This document shows positions 1 to 35,053 of a stretch of DNA of 37,860 bases, in pieces. The position numbers and the translations under genes are program-made. This DNA is from an uncultured Gammaproteobacteria bacterium. Its GTDB lineage: Bacteria; Patescibacteriota; Patescibacteriia; JACPL01; CAZRYK01. The first letter of the stretch is position 1. Each line of letters opens with the position of its first letter. The notes under the pieces were generated by a model, which saw nothing but the letters and a program-made list of their open reading frames with translations, was not told the DNA's origin and made no database searches. The stretch lies in assembly GCA_964604315.1 (NCBI GenBank), contig CAZRYK010000003.1:4105-41964 (forward strand). The letters are read 5' to 3'.

Positions 1-94
1 AAACCAAATTATTTGTGATAGCCGTCAACTATCTTATAAGCCAGAGTAGGCATAGCCGAACAGCGAAATCCATTTAAACAACTAACCATTTCCT

Positions 95-520: not shown

Positions 521-552
521 CAAAAATCAAGCCAGAACAGAAATCTTCGAAC

Positions 553-912
553 TTAACTTGGCCGGTAAACGATTTCAACATTGTTGCCGTCGGGGTCGTG
601 AACAAAGGCAATGTATTGATCTTCGCGATGCGGCCGTGGCCCGGGCGCGCCATTGTCTGTACCGCCGTTTTTTAATCCGGTTTGATAAAAACGATCAACG
701 GTATCCTTATCTTTTGCGCGGAACGCCACATGGACCCCCTGACTTAAAAAATCTTCCTTACGCAACCATACCCCAGCGTCCCCCGGCCCCTTAAAACCCA
801 TTTTGTTTTCCGCTTCTCTTGCAACGGCATACCCCAAAACTTCAAGAATCGCAGTATAAAACTGCTTACTACGTTGAAAATCGCTGACTCTAAAAGAAAC
901 ATGATCGATCAT
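553..912 (-). CDS. VOC family protein (glyoxalase/bleomycin-resistance fold)
   Basis: MIDHVSFRVSD, HVAFRA and AFVHDPDGNNVE metal-binding motifs. Confidence 0.9.
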   Translation of the reverse strand: MIDHVSFRVSDFQRSKQFYTAILEVLGYAVAREAENKMGFKGPGDAGVWLRKEDFLSQGVHVAFRAKDKDTVDRFYQTGLKNGGTDNGAPGPRPHREDQYIAFVHDPDGNNVEIVYRPS

Positions 913-1077: not shown

Positions 1078-2499
1078 ATGAACCAAGAACTCATACAATA
1101 CCTCCAACAACAAATCCGAACAACAGATGAACGACTTAAACGGTTTACGCATAACCCGCTAGGAAAAAAATATCCTAAACGGTTTATGTTCGTAAAAATA
1201 AAAAAGTACATCAATGACTTTCTGAACAAAAAAACCGTCAATACAATAGTGATTATCCCTGGGTTTCGCGGCGTCGGCAAAACTACATTAATGGCTCAAG
1301 TATGTGCCGAGTATAAAGAGAACATACGCCATGTATTATTTTTATCCATTGAGGATGCAAAAAACCTATTTGATGTTGGTATTGCTGAATTAATGTCTGC
1401 GTATGAAGAGATCCTCGGCAATGATTTGGAAAAAATAAAAGAACCGGTCATTATTTTTCTGGATGAAATTCAAAGTGATCCGAAGTGGGCCGTGACGTTA
1501 AAATCTCTCTTTGAAAAAACATCACATGTCTTTTTCTGCTGCAGTGGATCTTCTGCTGTTATTTTACAGACAACAACGAACCTTGCTCGTCGCGCTGTTT
1601 TTGAAAAAATGCCGCCTTTGTGCTTTACGGAATATGAAATGATTAAGAACACCATTTATCCACCGGGTTTAAAAGAAAAGATACGACAGGCAATATATTT
1701 TTCCAAAGATGCTCATGACGTTTATCAACAATTATTGAAACTGCAAAGCGACGTTCACCAATACTGGACAAAGGCCAGCAGAAAAGATATTAAGGAATAC
1801 CTTTCATACGGAACGCTCCCCTTCGCGCTCACCACGCCCAACCAAACGGCTGTGTACGACTCGATTTCATTACTCCTTGATAAAATCATTAAACTGGATT
1901 TGCCAACACTAGGAAATTTTGATCCAGATACCCTTGGAGCTGTAAAGCGCATCCTTTTTGCGATTGCGGAAAATGACACAACGAGTCTCAACACCCTTGA
2001 AAAAAAACTTGGGATCAGTCGTCTGACGATTGCCAACATCTTTGATGCTCTTGAAAAAGCCGAACTACTCATTAAAATTCCTGCGTATGGATCAAATATG
2101 ACGGCCGCAAAAAAACCGAATAAGTATCTTTTTATGTCACCTGCTATTCGCATGTCCTTTTTTTACTTCACAGGACAAGAAAGTACCTATCTCATGCGAC
2201 AAGGAAAACTCCTCGAGGATTCTATTGGATCCCATCTCTATCGAGAGCTAATCTTACGCAATAACGGCGCTATTCGCTACGACAGCGCAGAAGGCGGAGC
2301 AGATTTTATTATACAGATTCTTAACCGCAAGCAAATTATTATTGAGGTAGGCATGGGCGAAAAGGACAAAAAACAGATCTTGAACAGCTTAAAAAGAATA
2401 ACATCGGATTATAACGTCATTTTTTCCGCGTCAGAATTAGCTTTCGACAGCAACTTTCACATTGTATCTATCCCCCTGGATTACTATTTCTTAATCTAG
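1078..2499 (+). CDS. AAA_14/DUF4143-type ATP-binding protein (P-loop ATPase, wHTH, degenerate PD-(D/E)xK C-terminus)
   Basis: Walker A GFRGVGKT, Walker B IFLDEIQ, CSGSS, HTH-like SLNTLEKKLGISRLTIANIFDALEKA, C-terminal ADFI...IIEVG. Confidence 0.85.
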   Translation: MNQELIQYLQQQIRTTDERLKRFTHNPLGKKYPKRFMFVKIKKYINDFLNKKTVNTIVIIPGFRGVGKTTLMAQVCAEYKENIRHVLFLSIEDAKNLFDVGIAELMSAYEEILGNDLEKIKEPVIIFLDEIQSDPKWAVTLKSLFEKTSHVFFCCSGSSAVILQTTTNLARRAVFEKMPPLCFTEYEMIKNTIYPPGLKEKIRQAIYFSKDAHDVYQQLLKLQSDVHQYWTKASRKDIKEYLSYGTLPFALTTPNQTAVYDSISLLLDKIIKLDLPTLGNFDPDTLGAVKRILFAIAENDTTSLNTLEKKLGISRLTIANIFDALEKAELLIKIPAYGSNMTAAKKPNKYLFMSPAIRMSFFYFTGQESTYLMRQGKLLEDSIGSHLYRELILRNNGAIRYDSAEGGADFIIQILNRKQIIIEVGMGEKDKKQILNSLKRITSDYNVIFSASELAFDSNFHIVSIPLDYYFLI

Positions 2500-4116: not shown

Positions 4117-5484
4117 ATGATCGGCGAAAGACCCCAACCACAACCAGTAGATTTGGCAGTGCCTTCCGAACCCTCCAATATCACCAACCCGGAACCCCAT
4201 ACTCAAGAGAGCGCGACCCCCGCCCCTGAACAGCGCGACAAACGATGGATGGAATATATGGAAGCGCGCCACCAAAGCGCAAAACAAGGCGTACAAATCG
4301 AAAAAATCTTAAGCGAAGAATCCCCCTCGCAACTGGGTTCGGCCCGAGCGCATCATGATGAATATACCCGCGGGAAAGCGCGACGGACATTGGAATATGT
4401 TTTGAGCAAAATGTCGGACGACAAATACCAAGCGCACCACAAAGATTTGGAGGAAACCATTGAACGCTATCTTCTCAATCGGGATCGCGCGCGCATTGCG
4501 GAATTTCAGTGGCAAGAACAGCTGTCTGCCGAAGGGACAAGCAACGACCCCCAAAGCATGGGCGATAAAATATTTTATATTCGTCTTCAACGTCGACCCA
4601 AGGGTGTCGTGGAAGCATCACGCAAAGAGGCGTATTTTGTCTTAACATTTGAGAACGATCAAGACTATTTGGATTTCCTCGGGAATCCTGATTTGAACGC
4701 AAGCGGCGGCACTTTCCATCGGGCCATGCAATTGCAACATTTAGATGTAGACGTTGTGTGCATTCGCGGGAAGCAGGATCATTGGAGGGTTTTGAATCAT
4801 GAGCGCCAACATTTTATCAACGACACGATTTTTAATAAATTTGTCGGCATTGACGATTCTAACGTCCCGCCAAACAAAGATTACCCAGTTCTTACTCGCA
4901 ACTACCGATCCCGCACAGACATTATTGGAGATTTACAGACGGTGAAAGATGAGATGCTGGCTCGCATCCGAGAAGCCGGTAACGCATTGCATTGCACATC
5001 GTTTTTTAACAAACCGCTGTATGCGCATTTAAAAGAAAAATTTCAACCCAATGAGCTCCCGGAAATCGATCGGCTTTTTGACAGCATCAACTTCGAATTA
5101 GTTCATTTATTCAGCAACCAATTAATAGACAACGCGCATTTGCGGGCGCTTCTGGTGTACCATATGGTAGATGTTCCGCTCCTACGGTTCCCTGAACGGC
5201 TTCGGGCTTTGCGGGATTTTTATGAAGCCAAATTTGCCCCGATCATTCAAACCCTTCCGTCGTTTGAAGATCGTTACCAAAAACAGCGTAAACCATTGAT
5301 GCAAGCACAAAATACCGATCACGCCGTGTTGATCCGACATGCCGCATCGAGCATCGGAAGAATTCTGGGAAACGTCGCTCTAAGCCCAACCGAAGAACGT
5401 TTGAAAATCCGCGAGGCTAGAACGATGTTGATTGCCGAACGTAGCACCTACGACCGCCTCCACCCTCCCCCCGCAACGCAATAA
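4117..5484 (+). CDS. Hypothetical protein with HExxH motif (possible zincin-like metallopeptidase)
   Basis: 455-aa ORF; P/E/Q-rich N-terminus; VLNHERQH at 4798-4812 (HERQH). Confidence 0.7.
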   Translation: MIGERPQPQPVDLAVPSEPSNITNPEPHTQESATPAPEQRDKRWMEYMEARHQSAKQGVQIEKILSEESPSQLGSARAHHDEYTRGKARRTLEYVLSKMSDDKYQAHHKDLEETIERYLLNRDRARIAEFQWQEQLSAEGTSNDPQSMGDKIFYIRLQRRPKGVVEASRKEAYFVLTFENDQDYLDFLGNPDLNASGGTFHRAMQLQHLDVDVVCIRGKQDHWRVLNHERQHFINDTIFNKFVGIDDSNVPPNKDYPVLTRNYRSRTDIIGDLQTVKDEMLARIREAGNALHCTSFFNKPLYAHLKEKFQPNELPEIDRLFDSINFELVHLFSNQLIDNAHLRALLVYHMVDVPLLRFPERLRALRDFYEAKFAPIIQTLPSFEDRYQKQRKPLMQAQNTDHAVLIRHAASSIGRILGNVALSPTEERLKIREARTMLIAERSTYDRLHPPPATQ

Positions 5485-5569: not shown

Positions 5570-8500
5570 ATGTTCAGATTTATGAGGCCATCAAACAAAG
5601 TGATTATCGGCGCGAAAAGTGACGTCTCACTTAAAATCTCAAAGGTTCTTTTAACGTTAACTGCAATTTTTTCCATTTCGGCCGTTGCTTTGGCATTGTA
5701 TAGCTCAACACGGGTATCTCCAGAAAAAAGTTTTGAACAACAGCTATCGGCAAATTACCTCTTACCTCCAGCGCGCGAAGGCCGAAGTGTGTTTGGCGGA
5801 TGGAAAGCTATCGCTGTAAACCCCACCTACCGTTTCCGCGTGGGTAAAGTGCAAGGCCGCGACACCTTTATTGACCCTCTTGGCTACCCCATGTACGCTC
5901 GCGCGGTTTTGAACGTTTCGTGGGACAACTTAACCGAGGAAGCGCGGCAATCATATTTCAATAATGAGGAATTACCCTGGGCACAAAGTAGTGCTTTAGA
6001 AGTCTACAAATGGGGGTTTAATGCTATTGGCTATATTGACCCGACAGATGAAGTGCTTTTAGACCCGTCTGTTACCAAAGTCTCGTATTTTGGACTTTTC
6101 GATAACTTAAACGAATGGGGCGGCAACATACCCAACCCTTGGGACCCCACATGGGTAGCCGAGACCGACAAACGTGCGCAAGAATATACCGCCGCAATAA
6201 AGGACGATCCGTTCCACATTGCCGCGGTCACGGTTTTTGAGCCGCCGGTCGATTTTCTTTCGGCCGATGCAAGTTCGATTCACCCGAACAGCGGATGGTT
6301 TCACACTATGATGGCGGCGCAAGCTGGGTCACCTGCCAAAGTCGCATACGAGGAATCGATGAAAAAGCAGTATGATTCTGTGGAAGAATACAATCAAACC
6401 TATGGCACGGACTACACGGATTTTAGTGCATTGCGCAATACCGACACGGGGGTCTTTAAACGATTTGAAAATATTGATACGGACGAAGAACGAAAATTGG
6501 TTCCCCAAGTGGTGGAAGATGTCAACGTCTACCTTGCAGATATTATCGGCGAATACCAACGCGTCATTTACCAGGCCTTAAAAAAATACGATGCCAAGAT
6601 TGTGGTAGGCGGCCCGGCATTATCAGGCGAAAGTGCGTATAGTCCCGAGATTTTACAAGCCATCGGGGCAAACGCGGATTTTCTTGGCGTGAACTCCTCC
6701 AGCGACGAGGGTTTTGATGAAGCGTATATTCTGAAACTTGCCGAAGAAGCAGGGTTACCCGTATTACAGACGCGTTTCACGGTGGCGCAAGAACCATGCA
6801 CCGTGGATGTACTTGGCCGCACGTTCCCCAGCGTGCCAGAACAAGAAAACCGCGCCGAAGCGTATTTTGATACCGTGAATGAAGCACTTGCTCACCCGAA
6901 CGTGCTTGGCAACAACTGGGGCGAATGGATCGACCCGGATGTTTCGGCGAACCCCGATGCGCCGTGCGAGTACGCCAACACCGGTCTTTTTGCACGCACC
7001 GGCCAGCGCTACAAAAAACTTTTTGATCGCGGAACTGAACTCTGGGCCGAAAAACTCTTTGAAGAAATGCTATGGGGTCGCGAGTCACAAACTGAATACA
7101 CTTCTCCCTACAAGCGGCCGACTCCAACCATTCCTGGCATTCCTCCTCAAGTTCCAGCACCGCGCGACTTTTACCCCAATCACCCCGTTGATGCCCCGGG
7201 AAAAGACATCACACGAAAAGACGAACTGGAATTCCCACAAACCGAGGCGATCATCTTTTACGGAACGGACGAATCCGAGCAGTGTATTGATACGCTCGCA
7301 TCATTTGATTATCTGCGATTCGGCCTCATTGCTTCATCTGCAAAACAAGGAGACGGCGGCGTCAACCTCGGCAACCGATCGGGTGTAGGCAACTGGGCAG
7401 GTACGCGATACAACCTCAATGAGCTAAGCGCCTCCCAAAAACTTATTCTCGATGCCAAAGCGCTCAATCCTAACCTCAATGTGTACTCTCATGCAGGACT
7501 TCGTGGCGTAGAAACCGACTGGGCAGATTATGGTGAAACCCATCCGCGTCGCTGGTTCATTGATGCGTTAAGTCCTCGCTGGTTCGCATACACTCCCCTT
7601 GTCCAACTTCAACAATCTGTCGATAACAAGTCAACCGCCTTTGAATTCAAAGCCGAAGATATCGAGAACATGCGTCGTTTAGGTGCGAAGAGCGCCGAAG
7701 AATTGGGTTTAAGCCCAACCCGCTGGATCAAGGAAGCGGAAAGCCTGTACACATACTTTCAGGGGTTTGATAACGATCAAGGATCTGGTAGCGGCACAAC
7801 CGAAATCATGGCCATCGGCAAAATTGAATTAAACGGCGATCGTGGAATCATTCATACCCTCACTCGCGGTCGGACAATAAGCGGGGGCGAAAGCGATGAA
7901 GGTGGAGGAATAAACGTTCAAACCCGCACAGTCTGGGGCAAACCGGATACCAACATGTATTCAGCTGGCGCGCGATTTGGACTTCTCTCAAACGTGGATA
8001 AGGCCTCATATGGCACCAACAACATTAGAATGAACATTGTGTGCGCCAATCCTGAAAACACATCGACATTCTGCCAAGAAGTGAACGCTGGCGGTTCGTG
8101 GACAGAGCATGTTATCGGCTATGTACGCGATATTCTCATTCGTTCATATGCTGGAGATGTGTATCTCAATAATGGAATTACTTTTGACGCCGATGAAAAT
8201 CGAACTTGGAGGGCGTACAGTTCAAAATTCACCGGCACTGAACAAAAAGATCAACAGCTTGATATGGACGGCGATGGCGTTGCCGATTCGGTTGGCATAC
8301 TTAGCGCCTCGCTTTTTGGAGCGTACGATGCCGCCGCAACACGTATTTCTGAAGAAGCCAAACGTCAAGGCCGCTATGATTTCTTCGCCGTCATGAACGG
8401 CGCACTTGCAACCGAACGTGAAAACGAGCAGGTTGTCTACGGAGAATGGAACATCGCCGGACGCGAATGGGAGCAATTCTTTAACAATTTCACGGATAGA

Positions 8501-9058
8501 GGAACTCAAGACGCGATTGACCAATATCGACGCCTGTATACTGGATTGGTAGATCGCGATCATCCGCTTGCGCTTCTTACCTCTCGAGATCGGGCAAATA
8601 TTGAAAATGAAGGTAAGATCAATCTCAAAGATTTTCGATCGGTCGCCGCGATTGGACTGATCTTTGGCAATGGCGCTATTGGGGTGACTGGAGATTATGC
8701 ATCGAACCTTGAAGCGTGCGGAAGCGAAGATGTACCCGACACATGGATGGATTATTTCTCGGTTGACTCGGAAGGATACGCATCTACGCATGCAAACTAC
8801 AGTGGAGACACGCGTCTTGAGAACCGCCATTGGCTGGGCAAAGCGCTTGGCGACGGCGAACAAATCGCCGGCCTTAATAACACATTCAAACGCGAATTTG
8901 AAAAGGGCGTTGCGTACTATTCTGTTCCCGGCGGAACGATTCAACTTGATAGCTCCATGAACAAAGTCTGCGGCACCGACCCGGTGAACGATTGTTCAAA
9001 AAATATTACATCGATAACCTTAGAACCCGGCGAAGGCATTGTCCTCCTCCGGCCATAG
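5570..9058 (+). CDS. Membrane-anchored multi-domain glycoside hydrolase-like protein (GH50/agarase-like clan GH-A barrel, Pro linker, second GHL15-like barrel)
   Basis: N-terminal TM; FRVGKVQGRDTFIDPLG, KWGFNAIG, KKQYDSVEEYNQTYGT, PNVLGNNWGEWID, EYANTGL; Pro-rich linker; C-terminal FKREFEKG...TLEPGEGIVLL. Confidence 0.72.
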   Translation: MFRFMRPSNKVIIGAKSDVSLKISKVLLTLTAIFSISAVALALYSSTRVSPEKSFEQQLSANYLLPPAREGRSVFGGWKAIAVNPTYRFRVGKVQGRDTFIDPLGYPMYARAVLNVSWDNLTEEARQSYFNNEELPWAQSSALEVYKWGFNAIGYIDPTDEVLLDPSVTKVSYFGLFDNLNEWGGNIPNPWDPTWVAETDKRAQEYTAAIKDDPFHIAAVTVFEPPVDFLSADASSIHPNSGWFHTMMAAQAGSPAKVAYEESMKKQYDSVEEYNQTYGTDYTDFSALRNTDTGVFKRFENIDTDEERKLVPQVVEDVNVYLADIIGEYQRVIYQALKKYDAKIVVGGPALSGESAYSPEILQAIGANADFLGVNSSSDEGFDEAYILKLAEEAGLPVLQTRFTVAQEPCTVDVLGRTFPSVPEQENRAEAYFDTVNEALAHPNVLGNNWGEWIDPDVSANPDAPCEYANTGLFARTGQRYKKLFDRGTELWAEKLFEEMLWGRESQTEYTSPYKRPTPTIPGIPPQVPAPRDFYPNHPVDAPGKDITRKDELEFPQTEAIIFYGTDESEQCIDTLASFDYLRFGLIASSAKQGDGGVNLGNRSGVGNWAGTRYNLNELSASQKLILDAKALNPNLNVYSHAGLRGVETDWADYGETHPRRWFIDALSPRWFAYTPLVQLQQSVDNKSTAFEFKAEDIENMRRLGAKSAEELGLSPTRWIKEAESLYTYFQGFDNDQGSGSGTTEIMAIGKIELNGDRGIIHTLTRGRTISGGESDEGGGINVQTRTVWGKPDTNMYSAGARFGLLSNVDKASYGTNNIRMNIVCANPENTSTFCQEVNAGGSWTEHVIGYVRDILIRSYAGDVYLNNGITFDADENRTWRAYSSKFTGTEQKDQQLDMDGDGVADSVGILSASLFGAYDAAATRISEEAKRQGRYDFFAVMNGALATERENEQVVYGEWNIAGREWEQFFNNFTDRGTQDAIDQYRRLYTGLVDRDHPLALLTSRDRANIENEGKINLKDFRSVAAIGLIFGNGAIGVTGDYASNLEACGSEDVPDTWMDYFSVDSEGYASTHANYSGDTRLENRHWLGKALGDGEQIAGLNNTFKREFEKGVAYYSVPGGTIQLDSSMNKVCGTDPVNDCSKNITSITLEPGEGIVLLRP

Positions 9059-11066: not shown

Positions 11067-11930
11067 ATGAAAGCGACCCTTGTCCAGACTCGTTTGCAAA
11101 CGGTTTCCAAGGTCAACACCGCAGTTCGCGTAATGGCTGTGGCAAGTTTTTTGGCCGCCGCGAGCGCGTTTTTGGCCGTGAATTTTGAAAGCGACATTAA
11201 TAACTGGTATACGGGCTCTCGCTTGAATGTGACAATTGTCGATGGTACATACGCAACCGATCACGGCGAAGTGCCCTACCGATTATGCTACGCGAAAGAT
11301 ATCAACATCGCCATGAAATACCCCTCGGTGCTTTTTGCGCCAGGCGAAACCATAAACATGAACCGATGGACCGTGGATTGCGCACGCTTAGCCGAACAAG
11401 GCTATGTAACCTTTATGAAAGGCCGCACCGGAGAAAATTATCCGGAATGGGAAGAAGAAGTTGCAAAAGCTGTACAAACCATGAAGACATTCTCGTTTGT
11501 TGACGGCAGGCGTATTGCGGCTATTGCTTCCAGTTTTGGCAATCAAGAAATTCAGAGTTACGGCATTGATCATGCCAATGATTTTCAGTCGTACATTGCG
11601 TTATCTACCTTTAACAACCCCCATGTCATGCTGGGGTCTTTAGAGACATTCGACATTCCCACCATGCTTCTATCTGGCGGCGGCGAAGAACCGGAAGGCG
11701 CACGCGATTGCGATCACGACGCGTATATTTGGTCGCAAGAATTTTCGGAGAAAATGCAAAACGAAAATCCTAAATATTACATTGATTGGAAAGCTTTCGA
11801 CAAAGAAACTTACGGATGTGTTATTCATGGTTACATGTGGGATTTTGGTTCACCGGCTGAAGAAGAATCGCTAGAAATTATTTTGCAAGTTTTAAGTGCA
11901 ACGATCGGCACAGAACCGCGAGAGATTTAA
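11067..11930 (+). CDS. Secreted/anchored alpha/beta hydrolase (dienelactone-hydrolase-like)
   Basis: SVLFAPG, LAEQGYVT, VDGRRIAAIASSFG nucleophile elbow, C-terminal HGY; TGG-TATAAT lies 6 nt before the ATG. Confidence 0.62.
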   Translation: MKATLVQTRLQTVSKVNTAVRVMAVASFLAAASAFLAVNFESDINNWYTGSRLNVTIVDGTYATDHGEVPYRLCYAKDINIAMKYPSVLFAPGETINMNRWTVDCARLAEQGYVTFMKGRTGENYPEWEEEVAKAVQTMKTFSFVDGRRIAAIASSFGNQEIQSYGIDHANDFQSYIALSTFNNPHVMLGSLETFDIPTMLLSGGGEEPEGARDCDHDAYIWSQEFSEKMQNENPKYYIDWKAFDKETYGCVIHGYMWDFGSPAEEESLEIILQVLSATIGTEPREI

Positions 11931-16574: not shown

Positions 16575-17870
16575 TCACTGAAGCTTCTGCATCGCAACCG
16601 CGGGGTTGTCGCCTCCGACGCGGTAGTCGAGCCAGGACACGATGCAACTGCCGTCTGCTCCCAACAGCACAGCGGCTTTCCGTTGCGGCATGGCAGTGTC
16701 GGAAACTCCGACGCCGTCTTGCGCCCACCGCGCCGTATTGGTGTTGTTGAACGCTTGCACATACACGGTCTCGTTGTCGCGACCGTTCCGATCGTCTGTC
16801 CATGCGGTGTAGACGAAAGTTTCGGACGCCACGGCTTGCAGATCGTCGATGAGCTTTGCCGGAAGACGATGCGCCCACGACATGCCAACATTGTGTCCGG
16901 AGAAATCGCGGATCACACTGCACAGACTATCATTCTGACTCCACGCAATGAACGTGTTGTCCTGAAACGCCGTCGAGGCATGGGTGCGCAAAGAGCCGCT
17001 TGTGACGGTGATCGTCTTTGCAGGCCAGAACCGAAAGTTCCCCTGCACGTCCAGAATCTGAAACCGGAGCGCGGTGCGACCATCGCTTTGCAGTTCGCGA
17101 TAGGTGATAGCAACGTACCCGGGTTCGGATTCCGACAGCCGCGCGTTGCTGGCAAAGTTCGCGTTCGGCGTTACGTCCATGCCGTTCACCGGGAACAGCC
17201 ACTGGCGATTGGTGGTGTCATAGCTTTGAGCGTACACATGCGGATGCATTTCGTCGCGCCAGTCGGTCCAGGCCCAAAACACCACATCGTTGTTGCGGCA
17301 AACCCGAACGTCCATGAGGGCGCCGGCATGCGCACAGATAGTGGCAACATTCAGCGCGGTGTCGTCAACGAACGCGGCCGTAATGGCGCGTGTTGCACTG
17401 TCGGCAATCCATGTGATGACAGTTCCTTCCGGCGTTGCGATTGCCGAAAGTTCCGCCACCCCGCCGCGTGCTTCTGCGATCAGGGTTTCGGAAATGGTGT
17501 CAGTGGAAACGCGCAACGAAACCACCGACCAGTCATTGCCGTTGAGCGACTCGCGGAACACGACGCGGTTGCCGGCTATGCACGGATTGGTCTGAATGCC
17601 TTCGCGGCCCAACCGCATGCCGGTGTTGCCGAACAGCTTTCGCCCGTCGGTCGTCACCATCTGTACGGCGATATCCGGATCGGATCCGCTGTCGTCTTGC
17701 CATGCGATGACGGCGCCCTCCTTGTGTGTCTGCATGCTGGGCACATACTGCCCGTTGCCGTGATCGGCGACCAAGATGCCCATGGCGCCCCATTCTCGTG
17801 GGTCATGGGTCTCTTGCACAGGCGCGACTTGCCCGCACATCAGCAGGGTATACAACCATGCGGTGAACAT
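16575..17870 (-). CDS. Secreted repeat protein, probable beta-propeller; GC-rich
   Basis: About 6 repeats of hhxW-x-D(x)R...(V/I)YxQ; signal-like N-terminus; GGAG 8 nt before the ATG. Confidence 0.75.
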   Translation of the reverse strand: MFTAWLYTLLMCGQVAPVQETHDPREWGAMGILVADHGNGQYVPSMQTHKEGAVIAWQDDSGSDPDIAVQMVTTDGRKLFGNTGMRLGREGIQTNPCIAGNRVVFRESLNGNDWSVVSLRVSTDTISETLIAEARGGVAELSAIATPEGTVITWIADSATRAITAAFVDDTALNVATICAHAGALMDVRVCRNNDVVFWAWTDWRDEMHPHVYAQSYDTTNRQWLFPVNGMDVTPNANFASNARLSESEPGYVAITYRELQSDGRTALRFQILDVQGNFRFWPAKTITVTSGSLRTHASTAFQDNTFIAWSQNDSLCSVIRDFSGHNVGMSWAHRLPAKLIDDLQAVASETFVYTAWTDDRNGRDNETVYVQAFNNTNTARWAQDGVGVSDTAMPQRKAAVLLGADGSCIVSWLDYRVGGDNPAVAMQKLQ

Positions 17871-17968: not shown

Positions 17969-18838
17969 TTAATCCTGTGGATGACTCTTAATGATCAGAT
18001 GCCTCATTAATGATCTCTGCAATACCTTGATTCTGTCGTCCCCGGCTCCCATGGCCCCTTGAAAAATCTTTTCAAAACCCCCTCCCTCCAGTTCTTTTAG
18101 CATCGCTTCCGATATACCTCCCTTTGTGGCAATCGTTTTGATCAACGCCGAGGGAAATTTCTTGGATGCATAAAGATGCGTCAGCGTTCCTGTAAATGTT
18201 TGCAAAACGACCCGCAAGGCTATTTCTGGCGGCAAGCCTGCCTTTACTCCAGAACGGACAAAAACCTCAATACATTTCAAGACCACTGCCGGACCACACC
18301 CCGAAATAAGTGTTAGAACATCTAAATCGTCTTCTTGTTCCACCTCCACGAGACACCCCAATTTTTCCATGACCTTAAAAAAAACTTTTCTTTCTTTGCT
18401 ACGAAAACAATCAGGCGCAAACACGCCAATAACCCCCTCATTATGAGCAATAGCAATATTAGGCATCATGCGTATAAATTGTGAACGGATGTTCGGCGCA
18501 TAACTTTTAAGAAGTTGCAACTTAACTCCCGCGGCAAAAGAGACAATCAATTTTCCATCGATAGACTTTTTGACTTCCCTCATAACCTCTTGCACTGTCT
18601 TTGGCTTAACTGCAAGAAAAATCCAGTCCGCGTTGCTAACCGCTATTCGATTATTCTTCGAAACGTTGATACTAAATTCTTTTTTTATTGCTTGAAGGTG
18701 AATACCCAGTGGATTGGATACGGTAATGCACCGAGGATGAACAATGCCGCCACGAGCAAGGCCAGCCACAAGCGCTTGAGCAATGTTCCCTGACCCTATG
18801 ATGGTTATTTTTTTATTCTCTAATCTGTCCGTTGCCAT
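17969..18838 (-). CDS. proC: Pyrroline-5-carboxylate reductase
   Basis: IIGSGNIAQAL, FLAVKP, IRMMPN, LISGCGPA, IATKGGIS. Confidence 0.95.
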   Translation of the reverse strand: MATDRLENKKITIIGSGNIAQALVAGLARGGIVHPRCITVSNPLGIHLQAIKKEFSINVSKNNRIAVSNADWIFLAVKPKTVQEVMREVKKSIDGKLIVSFAAGVKLQLLKSYAPNIRSQFIRMMPNIAIAHNEGVIGVFAPDCFRSKERKVFFKVMEKLGCLVEVEQEDDLDVLTLISGCGPAVVLKCIEVFVRSGVKAGLPPEIALRVVLQTFTGTLTHLYASKKFPSALIKTIATKGGISEAMLKELEGGGFEKIFQGAMGAGDDRIKVLQRSLMRHLIIKSHPQD

Positions 18839-20006
18839 ACATTTTCCATTTATAAGTTAATAATTCTTGTAAACCAATGGGCCCGCGTCCGTGAAGTTTA
18901 CCGGTGGCAATTCCCATCTCTGCACCTAGTCCAAAAACATACCCATCATGCAAGCGCGTCGAACAGTTAACAAAAATGGCGGCCGCATCAATCGCATGAG
19001 TAAACGTCTCGATGACTTTTTTATCGGCGGCAATAATACCTTCAGAGTGTTTTTTACCGTAACGATTTATGAACACGATTGCCTCTTCGAGATTCTTAAC
19101 GATTTTGATTGCGATCTTCAAATCTAAAAATTCTTTTTTATACGCTTTTTCGCCTTTCATTATTCTTACACCCGACTGAAATAAATCTTTCGTGAGCATG
19201 GGGACGAACGCTCCGGCAACAGCTTGATGAACAACAACGGCATCGAGTGCGTTGCACGCCGATGGCTTGCTTGTCTTTGCATTGATAATAATGCGCCTCG
19301 CTATGGCAAGATCTGCGCTTTGATCTATATAGATCCTCGCTCCTCCGGCGGAGTGCGCTAGAACGGGAATAAGGGATTGCTTTTGCACAGCTTTTACAAG
19401 ATCATAACCGCCGCGGGCAATAACTAAATCAATAAATGTATCCTCGCGCATTATTTTATTAACTTCCTGCCTCGTTTCTATACAAGTTACCGTTTTTTCA
19501 CTCATCCCAGATTCTTTAAGAGATCGCGCAATGCATGCACAAAGCTCGCGATTGGTGTTCAGCGCTTCAGAACCCCCCTTAAGAACAGCGCCATTGCCAG
19601 ATTTTATACAAAGCGCGGCAACCTCGACTGTTACTTCGGGCCGAGATTCATAAATAACTAAAATAACACCAAGGGGCACGGCCATTTTATTCACCACTAA
19701 TCCCTTTTTGATCTTTTTCTTTTCTATTATCCGCCCCACGCCGCTATGGAGTTTGCCCACCGCCCTTAGTTCCTTGAGCATCTGAATAATACCCTTGCTG
19801 TCCAGCTTTAATCGTTCGATCATTGGAGCGGCCATTCCTTCTTTTTTTGCCTTCAAGAGATCTTTCTTATTCGCTTCAATAATGTGTTGTCGCCGCTCAT
19901 GAATAATTTTTCCGAGCTTCAACAGACACGCATTTCTTGCCTCTTCCGACGTTTCAGAAAGCAGTTGCGCAGATTTTTGCAGTTCTTTTAACGCTTGTTT
20001 ATTCAT
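18813..20006 (-). CDS. proA: Gamma-glutamyl phosphate reductase
   Basis: VPLGVILVIYESRPEVT, LKGGSEA, PSACNALD (catalytic Cys), VNCSTRLHDG, EMGIATGKLHGRGPIGL. Confidence 0.96.
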   Translation of the reverse strand: MNKQALKELQKSAQLLSETSEEARNACLLKLGKIIHERRQHIIEANKKDLLKAKKEGMAAPMIERLKLDSKGIIQMLKELRAVGKLHSGVGRIIEKKKIKKGLVVNKMAVPLGVILVIYESRPEVTVEVAALCIKSGNGAVLKGGSEALNTNRELCACIARSLKESGMSEKTVTCIETRQEVNKIMREDTFIDLVIARGGYDLVKAVQKQSLIPVLAHSAGGARIYIDQSADLAIARRIIINAKTSKPSACNALDAVVVHQAVAGAFVPMLTKDLFQSGVRIMKGEKAYKKEFLDLKIAIKIVKNLEEAIVFINRYGKKHSEGIIAADKKVIETFTHAIDAAAIFVNCSTRLHDGYVFGLGAEMGIATGKLHGRGPIGLQELLTYKWKMYGNGQIRE

Positions 20007-20629
20007 ATAACTTGCAATAAAATATCTTTACTTTTCCCATCTACAATCAATGATTCAATGCCCTTCTTTTGTGCCATTTGCAGAGCCGCGCGTTTGGCCA
20101 CACCACCGCCAACGCCGAATTTGGATCCTTTCATGGTAGATAAAATGACCAGTTGACTCGCCGCGAGGACGTGCGCAATTTCTACCGCAAGAAAATCGTT
20201 TCCGGAAAAATCGTTAAGAGCGATCACGTCATTTTCATTGATCATCGGAACAACATTTATTCTCACATACGCCTCAATGGTGGTTGCTAACTTTTTCATT
20301 TCTTTGCTCTTGGTCAAGTCTTTTTTAGTGACTAACAATTGAGCAATACAAATGCCGCATGCGCTGAATATTCGTTCAAAGGCGGACGTGAGTACGGCTT
20401 GCCCCACTCCGGCCGCAAGGGTTTTAACAAAATGTGTATCGCCAGAGGCCACAACCGATTTTACACCGCACGCTACTGCTCCAGATACGACAAGCACAAT
20501 ACCTGCCCCAGATTTACTCAACAATGCGATTTGACGCGCCAATGAAGTGATCCTAAACTCATCCAGCTTGCCTCGTTGCGTAAACAATACGCCACTGCCA
20601 ATTTTTACCACAACAATTTTTTTATGCAT
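20003..20629 (-). CDS. proB: Glutamate 5-kinase, shortened (208 aa, no PUA domain, internal deletion)
   Basis: VVVKIGS, LVVSGAVACG, AAGVGQ, INENDV, GNDFLA; likely ATG 20629. Confidence 0.88.
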   Translation of the reverse strand: MHKKIVVVKIGSGVLFTQRGKLDEFRITSLARQIALLSKSGAGIVLVVSGAVACGVKSVVASGDTHFVKTLAAGVGQAVLTSAFERIFSACGICIAQLLVTKKDLTKSKEMKKLATTIEAYVRINVVPMINENDVIALNDFSGNDFLAVEIAHVLAASQLVILSTMKGSKFGVGGGVAKRAALQMAQKKGIESLIVDGKSKDILLQVI

Positions 20630-20642
20630 ATTTTTAATCAAC

Positions 20643-20694
20643 AAAAGATCTCGCCCCAATCAACCAGAAGTCGATTGGCAAGGGCGAGATTTTT
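20643..20694 (-). terminator. Attenuator terminator hairpin of the T-box leader
   Basis: AUCUCGCCC...GGGCGAGAU stem with inner CCAAUC/GAUUGG, followed by CUUUUGUUGAUU; mutually exclusive with the antiterminator. Confidence 0.8.
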
Positions 20695-20880
20695 CGCGGT
20701 ACCACCTTGCTTTAATTCTGCAATAGCCTGAACTTTTCTGATAGCAGAATTCTTATAGGCGCTCCGATATTTAACCGACACGCCTTGAGTATGTTACGGC
20801 ACTCTTCCGTCGCACTCATCGTGCGCAGCTCCCGGGCGGGTTCTCTGCAAGCATGCAGATACTATTCCCGTTCATCGCTT
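20643..20880 (-). promoter_or_regulatory. T-box riboswitch, proline specifier (CCC), short Stem I
   Basis: Minus strand: GCGAUGA K-turn start, AGUA/GAA loop, GAA-CCC-G specifier (20838-20840), GCCGUAA F-box with IIA/B pseudoknot, AAAGCAAGGUGGUACCGCG T-box and antiterminator. Confidence 0.9.
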
Positions 20881-20895
20881 TTATTATTTTCCTCA

Positions 20896-20924
20896 AATAT
20901 AGTGCAGTATTCACTTTCTGTCAA
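20896..20924 (-). promoter_or_regulatory. sigma70 promoter of the T-box/proBAC transcript
   Basis: TTGACA(20924-20919)-17 nt-TATATT(20901-20896). Confidence 0.75.
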
Positions 20925-26300: not shown

Positions 26301-28004
26301 TTATCTTCCCCCGTCAAACCGTTGGAGAAGTTCTTCTATATCGATGGTTTCGCGGTTGCCGGTTTGGCGGTTTTTTAATTCCACTTTTCCGTTTTTTGCT
26401 TCGCGGCCGCAGACAATGTGCCACGGAATACCCATAAGATCCGCGTCCATAAATTTTTCTCCGCCTTTCAATTCACGGTCATCTAACAAAACTTCAACTC
26501 CGGCCTTCTGCAGGGCTTCGTACACATCGTTTGCAAGTTGCCGTTGGGTGTCATCCGAAACATTCACCGGTACAATCACAGTTCGGTAAGGCGCTACGGT
26601 TTCTGGCCAAATTAATCCATGCTCATCGTTTTGCTGTTCGGCAACGGCTTGCATCAATCGCGTGGTGCCAATGCCGTACGTTCCCATCCACATGATTTGT
26701 TCTTTACCTGTCTCGTCTAAATATTTTGCATTGAACTTTTCTGCATACACTTTTTGCAACATAAACACATGGCCCACTTCAATACCGCGCGAAACTTTTA
26801 ACGTGCCCTTGCCGCATTGCAAACACTCTTGACCTTCTTGGGCTTTGGCAATGTCGACGAATTCTTCCACGGCAAAATCTTGCCCCGCGTTAAGATTTAT
26901 ATAATGGTATTCATGTTCGTTTGCGCCGCTGACAAAATTTTTACCGCCCTCCAACGATGCGTCATAAACCGTACGCACGTTTTCTGGCAAGCCAACTGGC
27001 CCAATCGATCCCGCTGGCAATCCCGCATCTTTGAGCATCACTTCTGCCGCCGGTTCTAAAACCGTTGCACCTAAATGATTTTGCAGCTTCACATCATTAA
27101 TATCTAAATCGCCACGAATAAATGCCACCACCAACTGCCCATCGGCGCTATATAATACGGCTTTCATGGTTTGCGTGGCCGGGATTTTAAAAAACGTCAC
27201 TAGGGATGCGATAGTATTCACACCGGGCGTTGCGACTTTTTCTTTCTTTTGTTCTTTCGCATCTATTTTTGCGGCTGGGATTTTTGCCACCGCCCGCTCT
27301 TGGTTCGCACCGTAATCGCAATTGCTACAAGTAAGCAAAGTATCTTCACCGTTATCTGACAGTGCCATGAATTCCGATGAACCCTTGCCACCAATAGCGC
27401 CAGAATCGGCTTGCACAGAAATGAAACGCAAACCGCAAGCTGTAAAAATTTCGGCGTAGGCTTGCCGCATGTTTTCGAAACTTGCCCGCATCGCATCTTC
27501 ATCGCGGTCAAACGAATACGCATCGGACATGACAAACTCGCGTCCGCGTAATAAGCCATACCGTGGTCGCATTTCATCGCGGAACTTGGGGCCAATTTGG
27601 TGAATAATCAACGGCAAATCGCGATAACTTTTGACGTGTTGGCACGCAAGCGTGGTGGCCATTTCTTCGGCTGTTGGCGCTAAACCGTATTGCTCTTGGC
27701 CATACATTTCCTGCGTCGTGTACATGGTTTTGGTGTCAATGTATTTTTGCCAGCGGCCGCTGTGTTTCCAGTCTTCGGCAGGTTGCAAAATGGGTAACGT
27801 CATGTTCATGGCGCCATGTTTTTCTAACACCTCGAAAACGATTTTTTTGATTTTCTCGTGCACACGGTGGCCCAACGGCAGCAAATACCAAATACCCGCG
27901 GCTTTGGGTGCAATAAAACCGCCTTGCTCTAACAAGGCATGCGAACGAAGTAGACCTTCACGGACATCTTTCCGCGTACCGGGGAACAGACGAGTCATGC
28001 GCAT
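26301..28004 (-). CDS. proS: Proline--tRNA ligase (bacterial type with INS editing domain)
   Basis: KFRDEMRPRYGLLRGREFVMSDAYSF, IEVGHVF, MGTYGIGTTRL, anticodon-binding domain LLDDR. Confidence 0.97.
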   Translation of the reverse strand: MRMTRLFPGTRKDVREGLLRSHALLEQGGFIAPKAAGIWYLLPLGHRVHEKIKKIVFEVLEKHGAMNMTLPILQPAEDWKHSGRWQKYIDTKTMYTTQEMYGQEQYGLAPTAEEMATTLACQHVKSYRDLPLIIHQIGPKFRDEMRPRYGLLRGREFVMSDAYSFDRDEDAMRASFENMRQAYAEIFTACGLRFISVQADSGAIGGKGSSEFMALSDNGEDTLLTCSNCDYGANQERAVAKIPAAKIDAKEQKKEKVATPGVNTIASLVTFFKIPATQTMKAVLYSADGQLVVAFIRGDLDINDVKLQNHLGATVLEPAAEVMLKDAGLPAGSIGPVGLPENVRTVYDASLEGGKNFVSGANEHEYHYINLNAGQDFAVEEFVDIAKAQEGQECLQCGKGTLKVSRGIEVGHVFMLQKVYAEKFNAKYLDETGKEQIMWMGTYGIGTTRLMQAVAEQQNDEHGLIWPETVAPYRTVIVPVNVSDDTQRQLANDVYEALQKAGVEVLLDDRELKGGEKFMDADLMGIPWHIVCGREAKNGKVELKNRQTGNRETIDIEELLQRFDGGR

Positions 28005-32044: not shown

Positions 32045-32227
32045 GATACCTCCCTCAAAGGCAACGCGCGGAGAGGGACGCTCCCAACCAAGGGCGTCCT
32101 TCACGCGCAAGTTAAAAAGAGAATACTTAAAAACCCCCATTCTGTCAACCCCGCAAATTGACAAAACGCCCCACGCTTGGCTATGATAGACAAAAGAGTC
32201 TTGACACTTTGGTGTATTTATCATCCC

Positions 32228-35053
32228 ATGAACAAGCCTACGCGAGAATCAACCGGCAATAAATCCGTAGCGGCACAGCGCGAGGAAGAAATCCTCGCGT
32301 TTTGGAATGAGCAAAAGATTTTTGACAAATCGCTTGCCAAAGACGCTCCCCAAGGCGAGTTTGTTTTCTATGATGGCCCGCCGTTTGCCACGGGCTTGCC
32401 GCATTCGGGCACATTGCTTTCTTCGATTGCTAAAGATGTTATTCCCCGCTACAAAACCATGCGCGGGTACCATGTGCGTCGCCGTTGGGGCTGGGATTGT
32501 CACGGCCTGCCCATAGAATCGCTGGTCGAAAAAGAATTGGGGCTAAAAACCAAAAAAGACATTCTAGACATTGGCATTGAAAAGTTCAACGAAACCGAGC
32601 GGCCGTTTGTGTTGCGTTACGTGGACGAATGGAAAAAATATATTGAGCGGGTTGGGCGCTGGGTCGATTTTGACCACTCGTACAAAACCATGGACAACAC
32701 GTATATTGAAAGCGTGTGGTGGGCGATTAAGGAAATGCACAAAAAAGGCAAAATCTACGAAGGCCGCAAAGTGCTATTGTACTGCCCACACTGCGAAACG
32801 CCGCTTGCCAAAGCCGAGATTGCCATGGACAACACGTACCAAGACGTGACCGAAGAAGCCGTGACGGTAAAATTTGAAGTCAAAAATCCTGCCGATCATA
32901 GTTTGCCGCAAAACACCTTTATTCTTGCCTGGACAACAACGCCGTGGACATTACCCGGCAACGTCGCCTTGGCCGTGGGGAAAGACATCAGTTATGTTTT
33001 GGTAGAAGAAGACGATGCGCGTTATCTTTTGGCAAAAGATTTATATAAAGGTACCGGCGATATTGTAAAAGAATTCACGGGCGAGGATCTTGCGGGCTTA
33101 GCATACACGCCGCTTTATGAAGTGCAAAAAGTTCAACAGTATGAGGGTAAAAAATACCAAGTCCTTCTGGCCGATTTTGTTTCTACCGACGAAGGAACCG
33201 GCGTGGTGCACACAGCGGTCATGTACGGCGAAGACGATTTTGCGCTGGGGCAAAAAGAACACCTACCTATGGTGCAGTTGTTGGACGCCTCGGGCAAATA
33301 CAACACAGATGCACCAGAATTGGTGCGCGGCATATACATTAAAGATGCCGAGCGGCTGATTAAAAAAGATTTAGAAGACCGCGGGCTGCTTTTTAAACGC
33401 GAAAACAATACGCACTCGTACCCGCATTGCTACCGTTGCGGCACACCGTTAATTTATAACGCTATTTCGTCGTGGTTCATTGACATTCAGTCGGTGAAAC
33501 AGCGCATGATCGAAGAAAACGAACAGATCAATTGGTCGCCGCAGCACCTACAACACGGACGGTTTGGCCACATTCTTGAAACCGCGCCAGATTGGACCAT
33601 TTCGCGCAATCGTTTTTGGGCCAGCCCGTTGCCCATCTGGAAATGCGAACAGTGTAAAGAGATTGCGGTTGTTGGTTCGCGCAAAGAATTAAAAGAACGT
33701 GCAAACGAACCCGTACCAGAGGATTTAGATTTGCACCGCCCTTACATTGATGCGTTTACATTAAAATGTTCCTGTGGCGGTACTATGCGCCGTATTCCGG
33801 AAGTGGTGGATTGCTGGTTAGAATCCGGGTCTATGCCTTTTGCCGAATACCACTACCCGTTTGAAAATGTTGAGGAATTCGAAAAACGTTTCCCTGGCGA
33901 TTTTATTGCGGAATACATTGCGCAAACTCGCACATGGTTTTACTACATGCACGCCCTCGGGGTGTTGTTGTTTAACAAACATGCGTTTAATAATGTTGTC
34001 ACCACGGGGAACGTTTTGGCAGCCGACGGGTCTAAAGTGTCGAAATCCAAGAAAAATTATACCGACCCGTATGTGTTGTTTAATACCTTTGGTGCCGATG
34101 CGTTCCGTTTTTACTTAATGTCGTCTGTGGTGATGCAAGCCGAAGACATGATGTTTATTGACAGCGAGCTTCGGGAAACCCACAACAAAGTAGTGAACCT
34201 TCTGCGGAACACCTTAACGTTCTACGGGCTGTACAAAGAAAATGCTCCGGAGCCCGAGCGTGCGAGCGATCATATTTTGGATCGCTGGATTTTGGCTCGC
34301 CTCAATGAAGCGTTACAAACCACCACCGAAAGTTTTGAAGCCTATGACATGGTGCATGCCACACGACCCATGCGCGACTTTATTGACGATTTTTCCACGT
34401 GGTATGTGCGCCGGTCGCGGGAACGCGTCAAAAGTGCTGATGCCGGGCAAGCATTAGGCACCATGCGTTATGTCTTGCGTGAATTTTCTAAAATCATTGC
34501 GCCGATCATGCCCTTTATTGCCGAAGAAATTTACCGCACGGTACGCACAGACGATGACCCGGAAAGTGTGCATTTAACATCGTGGCCCAAAAACACCTCT
34601 GACATGGATTTGGCGATTTTACAAGATATGGCAACAACGCGAGCCTTAGTTTCGTCGGCCTTGAAACTTCGACAAACCGCGGGCTTAAAAATCCGCCAAC
34701 CGCTTTCGAAACTTTCGGTCAAAAACGATCTTCTTAAAGATAAAGAAGAATATCTTGCGTTGATACGCGATGAAATAAATGTGAAAGCCATTGTTTTTGA
34801 CGCGTCGATTGCAGACGAAGCTGTTCTGGACACAACCATCACGCCAGAACTTGCCGAAGAAGGCGCGGTGCGAGAATTAATCCGCACGATTCAGGATTTA
34901 CGGAAAAAAAATGGGCTATCGCGAAACGATGCCGCGGTGTTGGTATATGCCAGCGACACGACGTTACTAGAAAAACACTGGGAAGAAATTCGCCAAACGT
35001 CGAACCTCCTGGAATTCAAAAAAGGCCAAAAAACCGCGATAGAAAAAGTCTAG
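32228..35053 (+). CDS. ileS: Isoleucine--tRNA ligase, type 2 (IleRS2)
   Basis: YDGPPFATGLPH, GWDCHGLP, AWTTTPWTLPGN, DWTISRNRFWASPLP, QTRTWFY; lacks the C-terminal zinc domain of IleRS1; ATG 32228. Confidence 0.95.
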   Translation: MNKPTRESTGNKSVAAQREEEILAFWNEQKIFDKSLAKDAPQGEFVFYDGPPFATGLPHSGTLLSSIAKDVIPRYKTMRGYHVRRRWGWDCHGLPIESLVEKELGLKTKKDILDIGIEKFNETERPFVLRYVDEWKKYIERVGRWVDFDHSYKTMDNTYIESVWWAIKEMHKKGKIYEGRKVLLYCPHCETPLAKAEIAMDNTYQDVTEEAVTVKFEVKNPADHSLPQNTFILAWTTTPWTLPGNVALAVGKDISYVLVEEDDARYLLAKDLYKGTGDIVKEFTGEDLAGLAYTPLYEVQKVQQYEGKKYQVLLADFVSTDEGTGVVHTAVMYGEDDFALGQKEHLPMVQLLDASGKYNTDAPELVRGIYIKDAERLIKKDLEDRGLLFKRENNTHSYPHCYRCGTPLIYNAISSWFIDIQSVKQRMIEENEQINWSPQHLQHGRFGHILETAPDWTISRNRFWASPLPIWKCEQCKEIAVVGSRKELKERANEPVPEDLDLHRPYIDAFTLKCSCGGTMRRIPEVVDCWLESGSMPFAEYHYPFENVEEFEKRFPGDFIAEYIAQTRTWFYYMHALGVLLFNKHAFNNVVTTGNVLAADGSKVSKSKKNYTDPYVLFNTFGADAFRFYLMSSVVMQAEDMMFIDSELRETHNKVVNLLRNTLTFYGLYKENAPEPERASDHILDRWILARLNEALQTTTESFEAYDMVHATRPMRDFIDDFSTWYVRRSRERVKSADAGQALGTMRYVLREFSKIIAPIMPFIAEEIYRTVRTDDDPESVHLTSWPKNTSDMDLAILQDMATTRALVSSALKLRQTAGLKIRQPLSKLSVKNDLLKDKEEYLALIRDEINVKAIVFDASIADEAVLDTTITPELAEEGAVRELIRTIQDLRKKNGLSRNDAAVLVYASDTTLLEKHWEEIRQTSNLLEFKKGQKTAIEKV

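Follow-up and report, generated by a model that had tools for sequence, protein, structure and literature searches.

The T-box riboswitch is the textbook case of a structured RNA that reads another RNA. T-boxes of the terminator type are said to 'generally require' an elbow-binding platform for fast capture of tRNA (PMC7583486). A Stem I without this platform has been described for T-boxes that act on translation, a slower form of control, chiefly those of actinobacterial ileS, in which the loss is compensated by a long Stem II with an S-turn (PMC7583486, PMC11297988), and shortening of Stem II in the M. tuberculosis ileS T-box abolished tRNA binding (PMC11297988). According to PMC3858371, which cites Brill 2011, Bacillus proBA and proI are controlled by Pro T-boxes with a CCU specifier, and known Pro T-boxes prefer a specifier with a 3' U (PMC7778990). 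In TBDB, the search with the class II model was confined to Actinobacteria, and sets based on RF00230 served for the rest (PMC7778990). Among the papers listed by searches of the open-access literature, none links T-box riboswitches with CPR/Patescibacteria.

The leader described here is encoded on the minus strand of a 37,860-nt stretch of DNA, which is referred to as the window in its entirety. A first-pass annotation had proposed that a proline-specific T-box with a truncated Stem I controls proBAC in an apparent CPR genome. On the basis of sequence analysis, we conclude that the leader (20639-20924, minus strand) is probably a proline T-box riboswitch that couples tRNA-Pro charging to proBAC transcription. 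The support obtained comprises sequence and structure homology, covariation, conservation of the Pro codon, gene context and the energetics of two conformers; binding of the tRNA, termination as the output, what hairpin X does and what takes the place of the elbow contact are inferred.

The leader upstream of proBAC

A search with RF00230 aligned model positions 1-219 to nucleotides 20639-20884 of the minus strand. This full-length match scored 77.9 bits (E = 2.6e-17 for the region and 2.2e-15 for the whole window), as compared with the Rfam gathering score of 93 bits. An Rfam scan of the window at the gathering threshold called no T-box, and the leader is visible only when an E-value threshold is used. 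The score is below threshold because parts of distal Stem I and Stem II are deleted. In the alignment, 2 nt stand for 47 model positions of distal Stem I, and approximately 12 Stem II positions are deleted, including the GAA half of the S-turn. A 31-nt insertion relative to RF00230 separates the IIA/B element from Stem III. Relatives alone (17 of them) also served to build R1, a covariance model for the 5' module, and this model matched the window leader with 69.6 bits (E = 1.7e-15). Thus, the T-box identity, the truncated Stem I and the lack of a Stem II S-turn described in the first-pass annotation are all recovered. The folding energy of the leader was -87.5 kcal/mol (z = -4.2), a value equalled by none of 200 shuffles, and its ligand-free minimum-energy structure contains the terminator. 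The match and the fold are far beyond chance. We conclude that the leader belongs to the T-box superfamily through its sensing core and lacks two peripheral defining features, namely the platform of Stem I and the S-turn of Stem II.

Scans of the remainder of the window with RF00230 and R1 identified no second T-box, and neither the ProRS gene (26301-28004) nor a class I synthetase gene (32177-35053) has one. An R1 match at 6311-6432 on the plus strand (15.3 bits) lies within a long ORF and was taken as chance.

The features of the leader and of the downstream operon are compiled in Table 1. All of the elements listed in the first-pass annotation are present at their minus-strand positions; one further element, the conserved hairpin X (20784-20758), had been overlooked. 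The 800-nt region contains two promoter-like sites, where 0.9 are expected. The base of Stem I carries a GA (K-turn) motif, GAUGA/GGA, formed by GCGAUGAA...GGAGC (AGC-GAUGA ... GGA-GCU), and the specifier internal loop has AAUAGUA as its 5' strand and GAA-CCC-G as its 3' strand. The IIB pairing involves loop residues GAGU (20804-20801) and ACUC (20790-20787). Hairpin X contains an invariant U.G / G-A / U.G internal motif (GUGU...GGAG) and a variable apical stem-loop. This hairpin is missing from the Rfam consensus and has a high posterior probability in the window alignment. The T-box sequence of the leader, AAGGUGGUACCGCG, agrees with the consensus AGGGUGGNACCGCG at 13 of 14 positions. Strand AUCUCGCCCUUGC is common to both alternative structures, constituting the 5' strand of the terminator (-24.6 kcal/mol) and part of the antiterminator (-11.3 kcal/mol).

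Table 1. Features of the leader and the operon downstream, in window coordinates
Feature	Coordinates	Strand	Description
Promoter, TTGACA (20924-20919)-17 nt-TATATT (20901-20896)	20896-20924	-	sigma-70-type, 11/12 consensus matches
Truncated Stem I	20827-20879	-	basal helix AGC/GCU; no AG bulge, no distal loop
Lower Stem I, CGGG/CCCG	20870-20867 / 20836-20833	-	
Stem I cap, UCUGCA-UGCU-UGCAGA	20859-20844	-	6 bp and 4-nt UGCU loop
Specifier	20837-20840	-	CCC (Pro) 20840-20838 and conserved purine G 20837
Stem II	20811-20826	-	5-bp hairpin, purine-rich pentaloop GAUGA, no S-turn
Stem IIA and IIB pseudoknot	20787-20810	-	IIA ACGG/CCGU
Hairpin X, GGCGUGUCGG...CGGAGCGCC	20758-20784	-	outer helix GGCG/CGCC, between IIB and Stem III
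Stem III, AAUUCUGC/GCAGAAUU	20714-20751	-	22-nt loop, then AAA; aligns to RF00230 Stem III
Antiterminator	20678-20710	-	A1 GCAAGG/CCUUGC (6 bp), A2 GCGA/UCGC (4 bp); Rfam alignment
T-box bulge, UGGUACC	20704-20698	-	7 nt; UGGU complementary to tRNA ACCA-3' end
Terminator	20639-20690	-	bulged hairpin AUCUCGCCC...GGGCGAGAU 20690-20647, then UUUUGUUG 20646-20639
Operon proB-proA-proC	17969-20629	-	regulated operon; Pfam and NCBIfam
proB	20003-20629	-	208 aa, short glutamate 5-kinase; best NCBIfam TIGR01027, 131 bits, cut-off 186
proA	18813-20006	-	NCBIfam 454 bits, cut-off 289
proC	17969-18838	-	NCBIfam 192 bits, cut-off 196.75

The proB score falls below the TIGR01027 cut-off because the protein is short. 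A tRNA-Arg(CCG) gene sits just upstream of the leader promoter. Assignment of the contig to CPR/Patescibacteria, as suggested initially, is supported by the relatives of its GroEL and ProB proteins. The best named GroEL matches (72-75% identity) are from Kerfeld-, Komeili-, Uhr- and Magasanikbacteria and 'Patescibacteria group', lineages that we take to be class ABY1 and its neighbours in GTDB. Named ProB relatives are from Roizman-, Gottesman- and Colwellbacteria, Microgenomates and 'Patescibacteria group', and the recovered ProB relatives are mostly from Microgenomates.

Related leaders in CPR genomes

Scanning one genome per GTDB species with a ProB profile yielded 39 loci. RF00230 matched directly upstream of proB in 28 of the 39, with scores of 30-79 bits that were all below the gathering score, and R1 recovered 38 leaders, the window leader among them. 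With the two models together, a leader or a remnant was identified at 36 of 36 CPR proB loci with upstream sequence, and the CCN specifier was conserved wherever the specifier loop is readable, as was the antiterminator pairing in most members. These results indicate that a proline T-box family is widespread in CPR and apparently uncatalogued. The family probably escaped annotation because every member scores below Rfam's cut-off, which systematically hides CPR T-box leaders.

Close ProB relatives (L041, L043 and L044, 66-67% identity) have the same leader type as the window. A ProB relative with 61% identity (L042) is without a T-box, and its leader has no Rfam match. Degenerate members were also found, the specifier loop being lost in L009 and the antiterminator in L025. 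Leaders with a window-type Stem I (the window, L041, L044, L031, L033 and L035) keep the K-turn motif and the AGUA/GAA specifier loop, and the length of their cap varies from 3 to 10 bp. Most Microgenomates-type leaders are more reduced, Stem I being a simple hairpin of 6 bp whose 7-nt terminal loop holds the codon (e.g. GUUUGG-UUUCCCG-CCAAAC). These hairpin-type leaders have no S-turn, and AA/AA usually replaces the GA motif. Many family members have a putative pause or terminator element, consisting of a hairpin and a U-run, nested in Stem III. The window leader had been regarded as a minimal T-box variant. It is indeed reduced, but it is not a one-off; it belongs to a CPR-wide family in which most members are reduced even further.

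We also carried out a gene-independent metagenome scan with AAGGTGGTACCACGAG, which was not CPR-specific. Of 80 of its loci that were filtered with R1, only 4 carried the reduced 5' module. All four leaders read UUUCCCG, and two of them precede proB. The L114 leader precedes a proC-like gene, a PF01588 tRNA_bind gene and a gene for proline-tRNA ligase (TIGR00409, 448 bits, cut-off 306.7), and the L113 leader precedes a tRNA_bind gene and a ProRS-like ORF. A PF01588 tRNA_bind gene also adjoins the leader in L041.

Covariation was assessed in two alignments. In a MAFFT alignment of the 5' module from 17 leaders, 96.0% of the cells were paired, compared to 27-37% with slid partners. Compensatory changes occurred at 13 pairs, and the observed value was reached by none of 500 shuffles for any of the five measures. 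A model-fitted alignment of 37 distinct sequences, which is biased toward the fitted structure, was 96.7% paired and contained compensatory changes at 22 of 26 pairs. The pseudoknot columns were 81.7% paired versus 10-52% when slid, with a covariation score of 0.544 versus 0.139 for shuffles (0/500); variants include GGAU/AUCC, CCCAA/UUGGG, CCUGA/UCAGG and AGCC/GGCU. A position-free statistic, the longest complementary run, gave a weak signal for the pseudoknot (3.84 versus 3.47 for shuffles), and the column-based counts were used instead. All five pairs of Stem II showed compensatory changes among the 37 sequences, and its loop is GAUGA, GAAGA, GAUAA or GACGA in most relatives. Both parts of Stem I covary in relatives, the lower stem as GAGG/CCUU and AAGG/CCUU and the cap as UCCGCUUUC/GAAAGCGGA and UCUGCUAA/UUAGCGGA. 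Hairpin X was 94.5% paired, with compensatory changes at seven of its eight pairs. Compensatory changes were also found in A1 and A2; for example, the first A2 pair is A-U in 20 cases and G-C in six.

Read-out, ligand and proposed mechanism

In 37 of the 39 leaders a hairpin is followed directly by at least five U residues (U5-U8), and for 36 of the 39 the hairpin energy is between -20 and -43 kcal/mol. With respect to the U-tract there are two exceptions. L033 lacks a convincing terminator, and in the window UUUUGUUG follows an unpaired C and is interrupted, in keeping with the weak U-tract noted earlier. The closest relatives of the window leader have U-tracts of U6-U7. A simple terminator scanner called nothing between positions 20400 and 21200 because the stem is bulged, and the terminator was therefore folded explicitly. 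Provided that the element works as a T-box, transcription attenuation is favoured as its output, and we consider it quite probable.

The first-pass annotation had left room for translational control. In such a reading, the sensor would act mainly or additionally on translation, the 'terminator' helix hiding the ribosome-binding region until tRNA-Pro frees it, much as the actinobacterial ileS T-boxes with a short Stem I do. Short forms of Stem I are otherwise tied to translational control (PMC7583486, PMC11297988). Moreover, the 3' strand of the helix contains GGCGAGG or GGAGGAGG in many hairpin-type relatives, and in many of them an in-frame AUG or GUG abuts the U-run; in L019, L023, L027, L029, L037 and L038 this is the only in-frame candidate start found. 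In the window, the proB AUG (20629) is 10 nt past the U-tract and 17 nt past the end of the hairpin, which places the hairpin end within the 30S footprint. However, five to eight U residues after a GC-rich helix are retained in nearly all leaders, even when the start is 10-30 nt further downstream. In the clade that includes the window, the AUG lies 10-13 nt beyond the U-tract, and over 20 nt separate it from GAG. Complementarity to the conserved T-box sequence CCUCGYCC would by itself force a GAGG in the 3' strand. Furthermore, only about 1 of 25 window genes has a Shine-Dalgarno-like motif and several appear to be leaderless, so that there is no ribosome-binding site to sequester in the window, and Shine-Dalgarno sequestration was set aside as its mechanism for this reason. 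Translational control is thus unlikely for the window, although occlusion of a Shine-Dalgarno sequence could add to termination in many hairpin-type relatives.

Much less probable still is that the leader is a decaying relic that has lost tRNA binding and is now a constitutive attenuator or without function. The leader is without two elements to which a major part in tRNA capture is ascribed (PMC7583486, PMC11297988) and degenerate members exist (L009, L025 and L042), but the Pro codon, UGGU and the helices are kept with many compensatory changes in 37 or more distinct sequences, which represent at least two CPR classes. In addition, three different sets of proline-related genes have come under the leader, and with a default state of OFF, a dead sensor preceding a terminator of this stability would silence proBAC.

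The specifier is CCC in most members, CCU in L029 and L038, CCG in L031 and CCA in L035, and it is always followed by a purine (approximately 40 relatives, those with a readable specifier loop). Read in the register GAA-CCN-R, and in no other, both Stem I architectures specify one and the same amino acid. In register -1 the triplet is ACC (Thr) for the window type and UCC (Ser) for the hairpin type, and in register +1 the triplets are CCG, CGA and CAG (Pro, Arg and Gln). The discriminator bulge is UGGUACC, UGGUAAC, UGGUAUC or UGGUACG, with UGGU present in all 37 relatives. As A73 is the bacterial tRNA-Pro discriminator, the invariant UGGU fits the A73-CCA end. The window ProRS is of the bacterial type with an editing domain, which recognises A73. 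We searched for a source of the GGG anticodon and A73 and found no tRNA-Pro gene in the window or in the recovered related loci. Three proline-related gene sets with one leader type provide strong independent support for tRNA-Pro as the ligand; the proline specificity proposed initially agrees with the specifiers, the bulge and the downstream genes. It is extremely improbable that the leader senses another tRNA via a shifted specifier register (ACC for Thr, or CCG): GAACCCGCC permits these alternative triplets and CGGG pairs with the first CCC in the minimum-free-energy fold, but register 0 alone gives one amino acid throughout the members, the lower stems of L031 (GAGG/CCUU) and L033 (AAGG/CCUU) are unambiguous, and all of the regulated genes are proline genes.

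In the mechanism that we propose, transcription would start approximately 7 nt past TATATT and the nascent RNA would fold the truncated Stem I, offering CCC in an S-turn-type specifier loop. The small Stem II, the IIA/B pseudoknot, hairpin X and Stem III would then form. If no ligand is present, or if the tRNA-Pro is charged, the terminator would form as the more stable structure and RNA polymerase would stop at the U-tract. Uncharged tRNA-Pro, with an expected GGG anticodon and A73, would pair with CCC through its anticodon and with the UGGU bulge through its free ACCA-3' end. The bound tRNA would stabilise the weaker antiterminator, and with the terminator's 5' strand occupied in this structure, read-through would result. 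Because Stem I cannot reach the tRNA elbow, anticodon capture would have to depend on the specifier loop, helped from the side by Stem II, IIA/B and possibly hairpin X.

Proline T-boxes that are devoid of the platform and the S-turn and yet carry a canonical terminator constitute a natural test of the Stem I-platform rule. If they act co-transcriptionally as proposed, elbow contact would be no general requirement of transcriptional T-boxes, and the kinetic role of this contact would pass to hairpin X, to programmed pausing or to a trans-acting elbow-binding protein. Candidates for such a protein would be the products of the Trbp111-like tRNA_bind genes adjoining several leaders. The 6-bp hairpin with its 7-nt loop would be the smallest natural tRNA-decoding module so far, useful for structural work and for the engineering of tRNA sensors. 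The usual picture of CPR bacteria is one of little regulation and little amino-acid biosynthesis; the family points to T-box regulation of proline supply (proBAC, proC and proS) in CPR/Patescibacteria.

Comparison with known T-boxes

The canonical T-boxes of B. subtilis and B. licheniformis proBA and proI (Brill et al. 2011, cited in PMC3858371) have the same layout of promoter, leader and terminator as the CPR leader. Both share the GA/K-turn base, the AGUA/GAA specifier loop, a Pro codon followed by a purine, the IIA/B pseudoknot, Stem III, AAGGUGGUACCGCG with a UGGN bulge, mutually exclusive antiterminator and terminator structures, and control of anabolic proline genes. In contrast, the distal part of the canonical Stem I (AG bulge, distal loop and elbow platform) is absent from the CPR leader, Stem II is a pentaloop hairpin without an S-turn, and hairpin X is an addition. 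The CPR specifier is mostly CCC, whereas known Pro T-boxes favour CCU (PMC7778990, PMC3858371), and the hosts are CPR/Patescibacteria rather than Firmicutes.

The class II T-boxes of actinobacterial ileS (Sherwood et al. 2015 and the Mycobacterium and Nocardia structures, as reviewed in PMC7583486 and PMC11297988) likewise have a Stem I, intermediate or ultrashort in length, without an elbow platform, decode through the specifier, Stem II and IIA/B, and possess the same discriminator core. According to the same sources they differ in output, using a translational SD/anti-SD sequestrator without a U-tract where the CPR leaders have a hairpin followed by U5-8. They are Ile-specific, with a long Stem II and an essential S-turn (a string of five purines), whereas the CPR leaders are Pro-specific, with a 5-bp Stem II lacking an S-turn and with hairpin X. 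The CPR leader does not fit this class. The glyQS T-boxes are also naturally reduced and act by termination; however, they keep the full Stem I with its platform and drop Stem II and IIA/B, the opposite of what is seen in the CPR leaders.

The combination of a platform-less Stem I, a miniature Stem II, an extra hairpin and a terminator is unexpected for T-boxes. We tentatively suggest that the CPR leaders might represent a third T-box class, although we would put this at somewhat short of an even chance. Such a class would be coupled to a terminator, would lack both the platform and the S-turn, would present the codon in a short capped loop or a 7-nt loop, and would always contain hairpin X.

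A short ProB in CPR genomes

The window ProB belongs to a lineage in which the protein is only ~204–213 aa long. It lacks a PUA domain and covers about 170 positions at the start of the glutamate 5-kinase model. This short form is conserved in many CPR MAGs (253 homologues found), so it represents a family of short ProB proteins rather than a truncation artefact. Many MAG records that encode a CPR-type short ProB and carry the Pro T-box leader have the title 'uncultured Gammaproteobacteria bacterium' or 'Candidatus Saccharibacteria'; in these third-party assemblies the taxonomy label is probably a placeholder or an error.

Translation starts and other reading frames in the window

Inspection of the start regions of ~25 window genes revealed that a Shine-Dalgarno-like motif was almost wholly missing, and that several genes carried a TATAAT-like box 6–7 nt upstream of the ATG. 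The combination of few SD-like motifs and TATAAT-like boxes near the ATG suggests that leaderless or SD-independent initiation is widespread in this organism. Elsewhere in the window, a minus-strand 431-aa ORF fully overlaps a plus-strand 524-aa ORF. The GC content of this segment is 55% compared to ~44–46% in its surroundings. The 431-aa ORF had no Pfam or NCBIfam match; in another contig (L001), its counterpart follows proC as a called gene. Three large window ORFs (455, 1162 and 287 aa) were also without a Pfam match.

Hairpins nested in Stem III and divergent leaders

In many hairpin-type leaders, i.e. those with Stem I reduced to a 6-bp hairpin, a GC-rich hairpin followed by U5–U8 (e.g. 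ACACACCCUGGGGUGUGUUUUUU) is nested in Stem III, 5' of the antiterminator. L041 and L044 also have U6 runs in their Stem III loops, and Stem III of the window leader contained no nested hairpin and U-run. The nested element resembles an intrinsic terminator or else a strong pause site of the hairpin-dependent kind, and it might gain time for tRNA capture in leaders that lack the elbow platform of distal Stem I.

Several leaders were degenerate or divergent. L025 kept the decoding module and lost both antiterminator and terminator, such that the nested hairpin and U8 now directly adjoin the ATG. L009 lost both the specifier loop and hairpin X, the conserved hairpin between the IIA/B pseudoknot and Stem III. 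In L042, which encodes a ProB 61% identical to that of the window, the T-box was absent, no Rfam match was obtained, and a hairpin with U6 was the only element before proB. A recognisable terminator was not found in L033. In L004, L009, L011 and L019, hairpin X may stand in for an element of the stretch between hairpin X and GGUGGUA of the T-box sequence.

Positions of the features in the window and in related contig loci (L numbers)
Feature	Position	Strand	Locus
Short ProB	20003-20629	-	window
Start regions (examples)	11067, 1078	+	window
Start regions (examples)	31061, 912	-	window
Overlapping ORFs, segment	16398-17972		window
431-aa ORF	16575-17870	-	window
455-aa ORF	4117-5484	+	window
1162-aa ORF	5570-9058	+	window
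287-aa ORF	11067-11930	+	window
Nested hairpin and U-run	inside Stem III, ~30-60 nt upstream of GGUGGUA		L005, L006, L010, L013, L015-L018, L020, L022, L024, L025, L030, L032, L037, L101, L113, L114
Divergent leader	~1313-1500		L025
Divergent leader	55-244		L009
Divergent leader	1-471		L042
Divergent leader	1412-1500		L033
PF01588 tRNA_bind gene	78-407	+	L041
PF01588 tRNA_bind gene	435-791	-	L113
PF01588 tRNA_bind gene	5745-6080	-	L114
Gammaproteobacteria or Saccharibacteria title			L003-L006, L008, L013, L019, L020, L025, L028, L033, L034, L036-L038

Stand-alone tRNA_bind genes

In CPR contigs, stand-alone genes for PF01588 tRNA_bind proteins (Trbp111/CsaA-like, 109–118 aa) adjoin either proS or a Pro T-box leader. 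The protein could be a ProRS cofactor. Alternatively, and speculatively, it could be a trans-acting stand-in for the missing Stem I platform; the tRNA elbow is the binding site of Trbp111.
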